Virus record (IMG/VR): IMGVR_UViG_3300035208_002115
Origin: a virus
Lineage: Duplodnaviria > Caudoviricetes
Strand: one strand, 5' to 3'
DNA: 64,000 bases
The notes under the pieces were generated by a model that saw only the letters and a program-made list of their open reading frames with translations, was not told the DNA's origin and searched no databases. Shown here one piece after another: positions 35,340 to 39,424 of this stretch. Position numbers and translations under genes: made by a program. Within the stretch, counting starts at the first letter, position 1, and every line of letters starts with the position of its first letter.

Positions 35340-36929
35340 ATGAAGAACAACCCAATTTATGTTATAGATTTCAACGGGCAACCATTAATGCCAACATTCA
35401 GATATGGTAAGGTTCGTCATATGCTTAAAAATAACCAAGCAAAAATAATAAAAAGAGACCCATTCTTTACTATTCAATTATTAACAAACACATCGTCATA
35501 TATACAGTATATTATTGGTGGTATAGATATTGGTGAAACCGTTGGAATATCGGTAATAAACCCAAAAAATAATACTGAAATATTGTCTGCCGAATTAAAA
35601 ACACGTAGTAAAGATATTCCAGATAAACTTAAAGAAAAAACTCAATATAGAAGAACCCGAAGAAATCATTTAAGATATAGAACAAAAAGATTTGAGAATA
35701 GGAAATCTTCATTAGGTAAATGTAAAGTGTGTGGTGGTAATACTAAAAGTGGAAAAGAATTTTGCTCAACATGCTTAGATACAGTTAATGGTAATCATAA
35801 TGCTTATAAAGATATTTCTAAAACTACATCACAAAAAAGACTTGCACCAAGCGTAAATCATTTAATTGATGCCAATCATAAAATTATAAATAAAATAAAT
35901 GAAATATTACCTATTAAAGAAGAAAATTGGATATACGAAAAAGTTAAATTCGATATACAGAAAATAGAAAATATTGATATATCAGGTGTTGGATATCAGC
36001 AAGGTGATATGTTTGGTTTTTCAAGTTTGAGAGAATATATATTAGAAAGAGATGAACATACATGTCAAAACCCCAACTGTAAACATAAGAATATTAAAAA
36101 CCTAAAAAAAGGTGAAAATGTTTATTTGAAAAATAATATTACATTAGTAACACATCATATAATATTCAGACATCTTGGTGGCACAGATAAACCAAGTAAT
36201 TATATTACGTTGTGTACTGATTGTCATATACCAACAAATCATCTAAAGGGTTATTTTTTATATGATTGGTGTATAAAAAAGAAAAAAGTTAAAAGTGATT
36301 ATAAAGCTGCTACTAAAATGAATGTGGTCGCTTCTTCTTTTGATGAAAAAAAGAATTTTATACCCACGTTTGGTTCTGAAACAAAAAGAAAAAGACAATT
36401 GATTGGTTTAGATAAAACCCATTCGAATGATGCCCTTTCTATTTGTATAGATAAAAATAATTTTGATTTGATTGATGATTCTGGAAAAAAGAAAGTTGTT
36501 TTAAAACGAGATTTCAATTTAAAAAAAATAGAACATCCTGATTATCTTATTCAAACAAATGGTCGTTCTAATGGTAGACGAGCATTAAGTACATTTCAGG
36601 ATTCTAAATATATTGATATCAGAGATGGAAAAGAAAAATCAGGAAAAGAGTTATCAAAAGAAATGGATAAACGAACACTTATAAATAATAATAGAATTTA
36701 TAGGGGAAAGAAAACAAGTAAAGGTTCTTTTGTTAAAAGAACTGGTATAAGTGAATTTCCAAATAATTCAATTATCGAATTTACATATAATGGTAAACAT
36801 TTTATTAAAGTGTGTGGTGGTGTAACTGGATATAATGTATATGTTAAAGATTTCGAGAAAAAAACAGTTGCAATAAAAAAATGTAATGTAAAAATAATCT
36901 GTAAAAGAAAAGGTGTTATTAAAAAATAA
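35340..36929 (+). CDS. iscB: IscB RNA-guided endonuclease (CRISPR-associated), 529 aa
   Basis: PLMP (15-18), RuvC-I GID63, bridge helix RRTRR..RYR..RF, RuvC-II E200, HNH HH272-273/N287/H296, RuvC-III H361/D364. Confidence 0.92.
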   Translation: MKNNPIYVIDFNGQPLMPTFRYGKVRHMLKNNQAKIIKRDPFFTIQLLTNTSSYIQYIIGGIDIGETVGISVINPKNNTEILSAELKTRSKDIPDKLKEKTQYRRTRRNHLRYRTKRFENRKSSLGKCKVCGGNTKSGKEFCSTCLDTVNGNHNAYKDISKTTSQKRLAPSVNHLIDANHKIINKINEILPIKEENWIYEKVKFDIQKIENIDISGVGYQQGDMFGFSSLREYILERDEHTCQNPNCKHKNIKNLKKGENVYLKNNITLVTHHIIFRHLGGTDKPSNYITLCTDCHIPTNHLKGYFLYDWCIKKKKVKSDYKAATKMNVVASSFDEKKNFIPTFGSETKRKRQLIGLDKTHSNDALSICIDKNNFDLIDDSGKKKVVLKRDFNLKKIEHPDYLIQTNGRSNGRRALSTFQDSKYIDIRDGKEKSGKELSKEMDKRTLINNNRIYRGKKTSKGSFVKRTGISEFPNNSIIEFTYNGKHFIKVCGGVTGYNVYVKDFEKKTVAIKKCNVKIICKRKGVIKK

Positions 36930-36967
36930 TTTTTTTATATCATTATTTTTTTTATTTTTACATTTAA

Positions 36968-36976
36968 GTTCTTTGA
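36968..36976 (+). promoter_or_regulatory. boxA-like antitermination site upstream of array
   Basis: GTTCTTTGA, also at 38232 and 38585 in the tRNA cluster. Confidence 0.45.
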
Positions 36977-37032
36977 AATTTTGTTAAATATCGATTAAGC
37001 AGTCACACCTTAAAAATGCGACTTTGTAACTT

Positions 37033-37504
37033 GTTGTGTATTGCTTTCAATTAATTAAGTAATTCAGTTATATAGTTGTGTATTGCTTTCAATTGATTGG
37101 GTAACTCAGTGGAGCAATATTTATATTAAATCAAAGCAGGGTTGTGTATTGCTTTCAATTGATTGGGTAACTCAGTATAAAATAATAGAATTAGAAAAGC
37201 GGTTAAGTTGTGTATTGCTTTCAATTGATTGGGTAACTCAGTGGTTGCTATTGATGGCATCGTGTTAGCTTTGTTGTGTATTGCTTTCAATTGATTGGGT
37301 AACTCAGTTTCTTCTTAGCAAGTTTAGTCGCATTCAGTGTTGTGTATTGCTTTCAATTGATTGGGTAACTCAGTTTATATCAGGTTTTACAAATGTGGCA
37401 ACGTTGTGTATTGCTTTCAATTGATTGGGTAACTCAGTAAGATATCTATGGTGATGAACCTTGGGATAGTTGTGTATTGCTTTCAATTGATTGGGTAACT
37501 CAGT
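37033..37504 (+). CRISPR. CRISPR array: 7 identical + 1 degenerate 36-bp repeats, 6 spacers of 28-30 bp
   Basis: GTTGTGTATTGCTTTCAATTGATTGGGTAACTCAGT at 37075, 37141, 37207, 37273, 37339, 37403, 37469; 4-mismatch copy at 37033. Confidence 0.97.
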
Positions 37505-37790
37505 ATAGCAATAAACAAATCGTTGTTAATCAATCATTTGAAACTAAAATCCGATGTAAAAAATCGAATTTTTTGAACACATTTAGACTAAGAGAAAGGA
37601 TTTTTCCAATCCTAATATCTACGTTATGTTAGAATGTGGATTAAACCACAAATAGGTACGTTAGTGTGATTCCCAAGCACTATCTTCTACGGTTGTTTTT
37701 TAAACATCTCTGTGCAATAGGAGAAGTGAAAACAACAATAAACCTAACAATAACTTTGTCAAAGGGAACTAACAGGATTTATTCCTGATT
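37505..37790 (+). ncRNA. omegaRNA/HEARO-like scaffold with anti-repeat (tracr-like)
   Basis: Anti-repeat segments 37507-37518 and 37525-37543; HEARO-like blocks TAGACTAAG, CTACGTTAT, ATAGGTAC, CTACGG, TTAAACA, AAACC, ATAAC; pseudoknot TTCCC/GGGAA. Confidence 0.8.
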
Positions 37791-37818
37791 TATTGATATT
37801 TAACAATTTCAAAGAAAT

Positions 37819-37857
37819 AATAAAAGCAGATGATTTATTTATCTGCTTTTATTTTTT
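37819..37857 (+). terminator. intrinsic terminator ending the CRISPR/omegaRNA unit
   Basis: AATAAAAGCAGAT/ATCTGCTTTTATT stem plus T run. Confidence 0.7.
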
Positions 37858-37877
37858 AAAAATAATTGCAACAAAAA

Positions 37878-38139: not shown

Positions 38140-38220
38140 GGCTTCATGGTGGAATGGCAGACACGTTAGTCTTAGGAACTAATACCGAAAGGCGTGAGGG
38201 TTCAAGTCCCTCTGAAGTCA
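38140..38220 (+). tRNA. tRNA-Leu(TAG)
   Basis: Cloverleaf; TTAGT-CT TAG GA-ACTAA; long variable arm. Confidence 0.9.
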
Positions 38221-38365
38221 CTAAAAAAAGAGTTCTTTGAAGAAATAAGGTTAGTAATCTGGACGCTTAACCAGCAGAAGGGTGAAGTTTCCTTGGAAGA
38301 AATTGATACAAACAGGCTTTGGTGGTTCTTAGCAATGTGTTGATAAAGTGACCGAAAACATAAAT

Positions 38366-38438
38366 GGAGCGTGTGGCGTAATTGGTAACGTGTATCCCTG
38401 TCACGGATAAGTTCGGGGTTCGAGTCCCCCACGCTCCG
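38366..38438 (+). tRNA. tRNA-Asp(GTC)
   Basis: GGAGCGT/ACGCTCC acceptor; TATCC-CT GTC AC-GGATA. Confidence 0.85.
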
Positions 38439-38446
38439 CTTAATTT

Positions 38447-38521
38447 GGTGCATTGGGCTTCGAGAAGGAGAACATGGTTGTCACCCATGTAAAATTAACG
38501 GATTGTCACCGTTATGCACCG
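38447..38521 (+). ncRNA. aberrant tRNA-Asp(GTC)-like RNA
   Basis: Perfect acceptor GGTGCAT/ATGCACC and GTC anticodon arm, but T-loop ATTGTCA instead of TTCRA. Confidence 0.6.
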
Positions 38522-38650
38522 CTTAAAATTCACAAAATGTGATTTACAAATTGTGAATTCTCGATTTGCTAATTGCGAATCGATGTTCTTTGACGTATTG
38601 GGAAAAGGTATTTAAAATACGCCAGTGTGGATAGGTTCACACTGGTAAAT

Positions 38651-38724
38651 GGGGGTGTAGCGTAGTTGGTTAGCGCAACTGACTGTTAATCAGTAGGTCG
38701 TAGGTTCAAGTCCTACCACCCCCG
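38651..38724 (+). tRNA. tRNA-Asn(GTT)
   Basis: Canonical cloverleaf; ACTGA-CT GTT AA-TCAGT. Confidence 0.9.
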
Positions 38725-38732
38725 CATAAAAT

Positions 38733-38817
38733 TTCGTTGTGGCAGAGTGGTCAATTGCAACAGGCTCATATCCTGTGGTTAGAAATAACTTCGTGGGTTC
38801 GAATCCCACTGACGAGA
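38733..38817 (+). tRNA. tRNA-Met/Ile2(CAT) with long variable arm
   Basis: ACAGG-CT CAT AT-CCTGT; GTGGG-TTCGAAT-CCCAC T arm. Confidence 0.75.
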
Positions 38818-38824
38818 CAATAAT

Positions 38825-38896
38825 GGACATGTAGCTCAGAGGCAGAGCGACACCCTGTTAAGGTGAGGGTCGGGATTTCGATATTCTCCTTGTCCG
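38825..38896 (+). tRNA. tRNA-Asn(GTT)
   Basis: CACC-CT GTT AA-GGTG; acceptor GGACATG/CTTGTCC. Confidence 0.8.
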
Positions 38897-38910
38897 CTTT
38901 TTAAAATATA

Positions 38911-38998
38911 TGCGAGGTGGTGTAACTGTTAACACGCTTGGCTCATAACCAAGAGACATCAAATGCTTGTGTGGGTTAGAATCCCACCTTCGCTCCCA
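38911..38998 (+). tRNA. tRNA-Met/Ile2(CAT), long variable region, encoded CCA
   Basis: CTTGG-CT CAT AA-CCAAG; T-loop TTAGAAT. Confidence 0.7.
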
Positions 38999-39095
38999 TT
39001 AACAATTTTTGTCGTAGTGGACGACAACCATTCAGGTAAGCTGGGTATCAAAATTTAACCATCAAGAAAGTGAGAGGCTTTCATTAAAAATATAT

Positions 39096-39169
39096 CGCAG
39101 GGTAGAGCAGTTGGTAGCTCGTCAGACTCATAATCTGAAGGTCGTGGCGTTCAAATCCCACCCCTGCAA
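39096..39169 (+). tRNA. tRNA-fMet(CAT)-like
   Basis: C1:A72 mismatch; TCAGA-CT CAT AA-TCTGA. Confidence 0.8.
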
Positions 39170-39175
39170 CTAAAT

Positions 39176-39247
39176 GCTCGGTTCGTATAGTGGTTAGTAC
39201 ACAACACCTTCAATGTTGTTACAGGGGTTCAATTCCCCTACCGAGTA
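39176..39247 (+). tRNA. tRNA-Glu(TTC)
   Basis: CAACA-CC TTC AA-TGTTG (C at position 33). Confidence 0.75.
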
Positions 39248-39255
39248 CAAAATTT

Positions 39256-39338
39256 GGATAGGTAGCGAAGTGGTCAAACGCAATTGACTGTAAATCAATC
39301 ACTTACGAGTTTCGCAGGTTCGAATCCTGCCCTGTCCA
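39256..39338 (+). tRNA. tRNA-Tyr(GTA)
   Basis: ATTGA-CT GTA AA-TCAAT; long variable arm. Confidence 0.9.
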
Positions 39339-39349
39339 CTTACTTAAAT

Positions 39350-39424
39350 GTTCGGTTCGTCTAACGGTCAAGGACGGCAGGTTTTCATCCTGTTAATAGG
39401 GGGGTTCGATTCCCCTACCGAATA
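39350..39424 (+). tRNA. tRNA-Glu(TTC)
   Basis: GCAGG-TT TTC AT-CCTGT. Confidence 0.85.

Follow-up and report, generated by a model that had tools for sequence, protein, structure and literature searches.

A phage-borne CRISPR-associated IscB with an omegaRNA-type scaffold whose guide adaptor probably takes its 5' strands from the CRISPR repeat

CRISPR-associated IscB, together with its ncRNA, was reportedly described by Altae-Tran et al. 2021 (Science 374:57). The locus analysed here shares with such systems a nuclease, an array and an anti-repeat-bearing omegaRNA-type scaffold on one strand, as well as a repeat/anti-repeat duplex in place of the 5' hairpin. In DelIscB, an engineered CRISPR-associated IscB, the ncRNA holds repeats and an anti-repeat, and its processing into crRNA-like and tracrRNA-like parts was left open (Zhang et al. 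2025, PMC12660989); PMC10734217 is a further source on CRISPR-associated IscB. The ncRNA and array of DelIscB lie upstream of the ORF, whereas array and scaffold follow the gene here, and the 457-aa nuclease of DelIscB contrasts with one of 529 aa, which is a member of a separate clade with 477-578 aa and is carried by a 676-kb phage. With the canonical HEARO omegaRNA (RF02033), our locus has in common all core helices, both pseudoknots and a guide placed 5' of the scaffold, but its 5' element is not a closed set of hairpins and receives its 5' strands from a CRISPR repeat; no IS200/IS605 TnpA was found in the 676-kb genome. The crRNA:tracrRNA pair of type II Cas9, including the compact type II-D Cas9d (PMC12339737), shows the same spacer-then-repeat polarity and the same pairing of anti-repeat with repeat. 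In contrast to Cas9, the effector here is an IscB lacking a REC lobe; it comes with a large omegaRNA scaffold that contains pseudoknots, a hairpin breaks up the anti-repeat, and no cas1 accompanies the locus. The same logic appears on another branch in TranC, transposon-CRISPR intermediates between TnpB and Cas12, some of them phage-borne, in which the transposon guide RNA is functionally split into array-borne crRNA and tracr-like scaffold; their TnpB/Cas12 nuclease family and RNA are unrelated to those of IscB, and their guide lies at the 3' end (TranC is mentioned in bioRxiv 10.64898/2026.03.27.714800).

The phage genome, an IMG/VR virus record, consists of one contig of 675,678 bp with 27% G+C and an estimated completeness of 98%, and it holds a single IscB/HEARO copy. 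Positions below refer to the window, that is, the whole stretch of 64,000 nucleotides that was analysed. The module lies on the + strand in the order iscB, conserved motif, CRISPR array, 20-nt linker, scaffold and terminator-like hairpin:

35340-36929, + strand: iscB, 529 aa, predicted RNA-guided nuclease (Pfam, NCBIfam, clade alignment)
36966-36979, + strand: conserved promoter-like motif 5' of the array, shared with relatives; putative promoter role
37033-37504, + strand: CRISPR array of eight 36-nt repeats with six spacers (repeat analysis)
37469-37504, + strand: last repeat, contiguous with the scaffold; gives the 5' strands of helices H1 and H2
37819-37858, + strand: hairpin resembling an intrinsic terminator, with a T run after it (fold of 37776-37870, -20.7 kcal/mol)

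By its sequence, the 529-aa ORF is an IscB, with the N-terminal PLMP/RRXRR region, an HNH domain inserted in a split RuvC and the catalytic residues all present. The Pfam RRXRR domain is matched at 5.4e-42, and the NCBIfam guided_IscB equivalog is passed with 240 bits against a cut-off of 175; the Pfam HNH match is marginal at 21.0 bits against a cut-off of 21.4. The RuvC and HNH residues D63, E200, H272/H273, H296, H361 and D364 are invariant in a clade alignment of 15 sequences. With IscB as the effector and no Cas1 (PF01867) anywhere in the 676-kb genome, the locus falls outside type II CRISPR-Cas, which is defined by Cas9 together with cas1/cas2. A cluster of at least 10 tRNA genes lies immediately 3' of the module (window 38140-39424).

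Seven of the eight repeats in the array are identical; the first one is degenerate and has just 6 nt behind it, a collapsed spacer. The six spacers measure 30/30/30/30/28/30 nt, so that the array displays the traits by which a CRISPR array is recognised, namely at least three near-identical direct repeats with unique spacers of constant length. The 12-14-nt motif upstream of it also precedes the arrays of L078, L079, L160, L162, L287, L289, L166 and L014, loci whose IscBs are merely 36-63% identical, and it occurs 16 times in the 676-kb genome against about 4 copies expected from a rough composition estimate. The motif may be a promoter or leader signal. None of the spacers has a second copy within the phage's own genome, and no spacer target emerged when the whole array was compared by BLAST with 50,697 phage records. 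The only matches, to Flavobacterium phages at E 0.04, span a spacer-repeat border and are therefore read as chance. Around the first full repeat and around the last one, stretches of 48 nt are 96% identical to each other, and the start of spacer 1 (37111-37119) resembles the sequence just after the array (37505-37513); spacer 1 may have come from the linker as a copy that then decayed, which might be a trace of the array's birth by duplication.

Two further array-like elements were seen in the same phage outside the window. One (L291:8187-10037, equivalent to G000:C1:513186-515036) has five 36-nt repeats with spacers of about 30 nt and lies 217 nt from a minus-strand ORF of 446 aa that is TnpB/Cas12f-like (Pfam Cas12f1-like TNB at 6.5e-15; NCBIfam guided_TnpB at 117 bits). 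Its repeat shares 22 of 36 positions with that of the IscB array, 16 of the first 20 among them, and a simple duplex test revealed no anti-repeat for this second array. The other is a run of four repeats (L290:7792-8019, equivalent to G000:C1:486791-487018) with no nuclease gene nearby, its neighbours encoding DUF6794, DnaJ-domain and KilA-N proteins; a 7-nt stretch of this repeat is the complement of a motif that has two copies in the interval separating the TnpB-like gene from the second array. Also outside the window (L291:2295-4703), an adenylosuccinate synthetase-like ORF of 802 aa is split by a LAGLIDADG intein according to Pfam.

Downstream of the array, the scaffold and its linker contain the following features:

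37507-37518, + strand: extra complement to repeat nt 2-13, specific to the window, inside the 20-nt linker
37525-37543, + strand: long anti-repeat, pairs with repeat nt 13-31 to form H2 (minimum-energy structure of the cofold, in trans and in cis)
37546-37572, + strand: hairpin H3, inserted in the three-way junction (folding; predicted at the same place in relatives)
37577-37581, + strand: short anti-repeat, pairs with repeat nt 3-7 to form H1, which closes the guide-adaptor stem beside the core
37583-37773, + strand: omegaRNA/HEARO-type core (covariance model, alignment of five loci, folding)
37623-37632/37744-37754, + strand: long-range stem of the core
37662-37667/37677-37682, 37692-37700/37728-37736 and 37704-37711/37720-37727, + strand: core stems
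37586-37590/37756-37760 and 37670-37674/37764-37768, + strand: core pseudoknots
37773-37787, + strand: terminal hairpin of the scaffold (hairpin at the same place in L078, L079, L160 and L287)

The earlier note had listed three complements to the repeat, and all of them are literally present. Against the reverse complement of repeat nt 2-13, the segment 37507-37518 agrees at 11 of 12 positions; 37525-37543 agrees with that of nt 13-31 at 16 of 19 (17 of 19 positions pair when G-U is counted, leaving two mismatches and one G-U in the 19 bp of H2), and ACACA at 37577-37581 complements nt 3-7 without a mismatch. At least 11 of 12 matches to the repeat were obtained with 21 of 20,000 random 20-mers of this genome (about 0.1%), and at least 16 of 19 with 3 of 5,000 random 78-mers.

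Co-folding of repeat and scaffold, a check that the note had named, gives one predicted architecture. When a crRNA (spacer plus repeat) is cofolded with the scaffold, the minimum-energy structure contains H1, H2 and H3, and the contiguous last repeat and scaffold fold into the same structure in cis, with repeat nt 8-12 unpaired at the predicted junction. The predicted cis ensemble assigns pair probabilities of 0.73-0.91 to H1 and 0.65-0.85 to the standard pairs of H2. The segments 37525-37543 and 37577-37581 are colinear with the repeat in the antiparallel sense. The anti-repeat is split, as had been proposed, but not in the way that the note had put it: the real parts are 37525-37543 and 37577-37581, arranged around a hairpin. 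The suggestion that ACACA closes the stem holds exactly, at the canonical closing point of the guide adaptor. The last repeat is contiguous with the scaffold and would therefore be able to fold as a natural single guide, as the note had envisaged and as the cis fold predicts.

The Rfam HEARO covariance model (RF02033) matches 37575-37773 with its 5' element deleted, at 67 bits and E 2.4e-12, a score below the curated gathering cut-off of 83 bits. The note had put forward a HEARO-type core and had named a lack of similarity to this model as the finding that would speak against it; at this E-value, the similarity is there. The core helices it had quoted and the TTCCC/GGGAA pseudoknot lie where they had been placed, and their covariation holds across five loci. 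In the scaffold alignment of these loci, 90% of the cells in the core helices and both pseudoknots are paired, compared with 40-52% in controls in which the partner was slid by 1-3 columns; 25 of the 46 core pairs change on both sides, and the pseudoknot 37670-37674/37764-37768 is 92% paired with two covarying pairs. Canonical, non-CRISPR relatives (L006, L012 and L097) score 129-147 bits against 67 here, and CRISPR-linked relatives 57-90. The former keep the 5' element, an outer stem enclosing two small hairpins, and the CRISPR-linked scaffolds are without it. In our locus the closed 5' guide-adaptor hairpin element is missing, with repeat:anti-repeat pairing in its place, and the shortfall of the HEARO score coincides with this missing element.

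The nearest IscB proteins are 42-63% identical, have 477-578 aa and were found solely on metagenome or virus contigs, with no relative above 39% identity among about 185,000 prokaryote genomes. In a tree of 185 proteins, the IscB of the window falls into a well-supported clade of 13-14 rows, within which iscB precedes first the array and then the scaffold on every contig long enough to tell, L157 excepted; in the sister L166, array and scaffold lie upstream of iscB. Besides the window, the loci read through were L077/L078, L079, L287, L160/L161 and L162, the contig of the last ending inside the core. The contigs of L158, L159, L164, L165 and L163 end right after iscB, and the comparison is therefore confined to six full loci. 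L157 (L157:1603-3800) encodes one of the closest relatives, an IscB that is 58% identical; its contig of 4.7 kb carries neither array nor omegaRNA core, and iscB is flanked there by a tRNA gene immediately upstream and by ordinary ORFs on the downstream side. In viral contigs, a 14-nt motif of the core occurred at more than 118 places; those that were inspected all failed to fit the core profile, and the occurrences were ascribed to chance.

The junction of H1, H2 and H3 is also predicted in L078, L079, L287, L160 and L162, each with its own, differing repeat and with the H3 hairpin at the equivalent site, and in the window and three of the other five loci, 77-78 nt separate the last repeat from the core. 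In a matrix of interaction energies for the six loci, cognate repeat-scaffold pairs reach -6 to -11 kcal/mol and most non-cognate pairs lie near 0, the exceptions being the row of the window repeat (-4 to -8 kcal/mol) and the L287 repeat with the L160 scaffold (-5.6 kcal/mol); the window repeat is weakly self-structured. Only 0-2 of 300 shuffled repeats reached the cognate duplex energy for L078, L079, L287 and L162, whereas the window, at 10 of 300, and L160, at 33 of 300, give a weaker signal. H1 is the most general feature: in 13 CRISPR-linked IscB loci, among them the array-upstream lineages L014, L027, L032, L082, L084, L091 and L166, the core is directly preceded by 5-8 nt that pair with nt 1/2-7 of the locus's own repeat, and the starts of these repeats are of seven different kinds. 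The comparison with related loci that the earlier note had called for thus shows covariation both in the core and in the pairing of anti-repeat with repeat. An anti-repeat that is complementary to its cognate repeat and co-evolves with it, as is asked of a tracrRNA, is found here. The same covariation rules out the note's own alternative that 37525-37543 belongs to a quasi-palindromic leader. In the more distant phage IscB loci L027 (3518-3800) and L032 (3580-3790), the array repeats start like typical type II repeats and a short anti-repeat lies just about 40 nt from the omegaRNA core.

We consider it likely that 37505-37790 is the guide scaffold of a phage-borne CRISPR-associated IscB in which the 5' strands of the guide adaptor come from the CRISPR repeat. 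The note's idea of a hybrid between tracrRNA and omegaRNA is supported. The canonical adaptor is a 5' three-way junction, and one of its inner hairpins would have come open at the loop. The 5' strands would now be supplied by repeat nt 3-7 (H1) and nt 13-31 (H2), with the 3' strands kept on the scaffold at 37577-37581 (H1) and 37525-37543 (H2) and with H3 (37546-37572) in between. Going by these positions, H1 would correspond to the canonical outer stem, H2 to the first inner hairpin, opened and lengthened, and H3 to the second. In L084/L091, merely a few nt separate the last repeat from the anti-repeat, and the two therefore still form a plain hairpin there. Read in this way, the guide adaptor of the omegaRNA itself has its 5' half in the CRISPR repeat, and the "tracrRNA" is the remainder.

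Array and scaffold would be made as one transcript running from the motif at 36966-36979 to the terminator near 37819-37858. The single anti-repeat could then pair with the last repeat next to it, which would yield a natural single guide, or else with any one of the identical repeats further upstream, whether these belong to its own transcript or to a different one; because the repeats are identical and lie on the same RNA, a strict choice between cis and trans is not forced. For Cas9 guides, a step by a double-strand RNase is established; here such an enzyme, for instance host RNase III, would together with trimming release a two-part guide. IscB, guided by the 3' part of the spacer, would cut matching DNA beside a target-adjacent motif. 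Of this scheme, the fitting anti-repeats, the conserved core, the catalytic residues and the identical repeats are seen in the sequences themselves.

How the one scaffold is shared among six spacers might be explained differently. If the scaffold were a separate tracrRNA in the manner of Cas9 dual RNAs, transcribed from a promoter of its own within or close to the linker and acting only in trans, the problem of one scaffold for six spacers would be solved, and a weak sigma-70-like site is present at 37523-37550 (9/12). However, a start at this site falls after the long anti-repeat, which would therefore be deleted from such an RNA; promoter-like sites show no excess (8 against 6.8 in shuffles), and no conserved promoter element ahead of the anti-repeat is common to the linkers of four relatives. 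We regard this arrangement as unlikely. The same lack of a conserved promoter 5' of the anti-repeat agrees with the opposite extreme, a natural single guide working only in cis, in which just the scaffold-adjacent spacer 37439-37468 is ever used, the units further upstream being kept as silent stock or left as debris. Last repeat and anti-repeat follow each other at a distance of 14-20 nt in four loci and of only a few nt in L084/L091, and the cis fold is the minimum-energy structure, both of which this explanation would account for. Against it, seven identical repeats and spacers constant at 30 nt, with up to 10-11 units in relatives, recur across the related loci and would therefore be hard to retain without use, and all repeats of one transcript are equally able to reach the single anti-repeat, so that exclusive use of the last spacer appears distinctly improbable. 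That array and scaffold are an inactive, decaying relic no longer used by IscB would agree with the missing targets in the phage records and the own genome, the lack of adaptation genes, and the degenerate first repeat with its collapsed spacer. We give this almost no chance, as the catalytic residues are intact, the repeats identical, repeat and anti-repeat mutually fitted in six loci and the core structure conserved.

The remaining alternatives concern the complement at 37507-37518. The earlier note had taken it and the other segments as two competing anti-repeat registers, suggestive of a switch or processing signal, and a riboswitch-like competition between 37507-37518 and 37577-37581 for repeat nt 2-13 might gate processing or the choice of guide. 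An 11/12 match with its low chance probability and a duplex of -10.4 kcal/mol favour such a device, as does the forced alternative: with the 37507-37518 pairing imposed in cis, the fold reaches -16.8 instead of -20.2 kcal/mol, just 3.4 kcal/mol above the minimum. The equivalent duplexes of five relatives, however, reach merely -1.4 to -4.2 kcal/mol, and the L078 repeat differs at one of the paired positions with no compensating change. The pairing takes a share of about 0.10 of the predicted ensemble, and the segment is out of order, since it stands 5' of 37525-37543, whose partner is the more 3' part of the repeat. By our reading of the topology, the pairing would cross H2 beyond what the loop lengths allow and therefore could not coexist with it; it would form only instead of H1 and H2, never alongside them. 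Specific to the window, out of order and confined to about 10% of the ensemble, the segment therefore leaves a conserved switch unsupported, and we hold the competition to be very improbable. There is a similarly slim chance that 37507-37518 is a working decoy, which holds the scaffold-proximal repeat in a hairpin and frees the single anti-repeat for upstream repeats; if true, this would even out spacer use where one scaffold is made per array transcript. Most likely, the segment is a lineage-specific leftover outside the mechanism.

Compared with known systems, the gene order, the clade and size of the IscB and the megaphage setting differ, and the principle is not new. With the CRISPR repeat as the probable source of the adaptor's 5' strands, the locus is a well-resolved natural example of how a tracrRNA can arise from an omegaRNA. 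The six loci suggest that the repeat supplies the 5' strands of the three-way junction and that the anti-repeat represents the retained 3' strands, split by a conserved hairpin. This gives a concrete rule for designing single guides in a clade of larger, possibly phage-borne IscBs, and it provides covarying pairs of repeat and scaffold that bear on the question raised by DelIscB, namely whether and how the RNA is processed so that all spacers are used.
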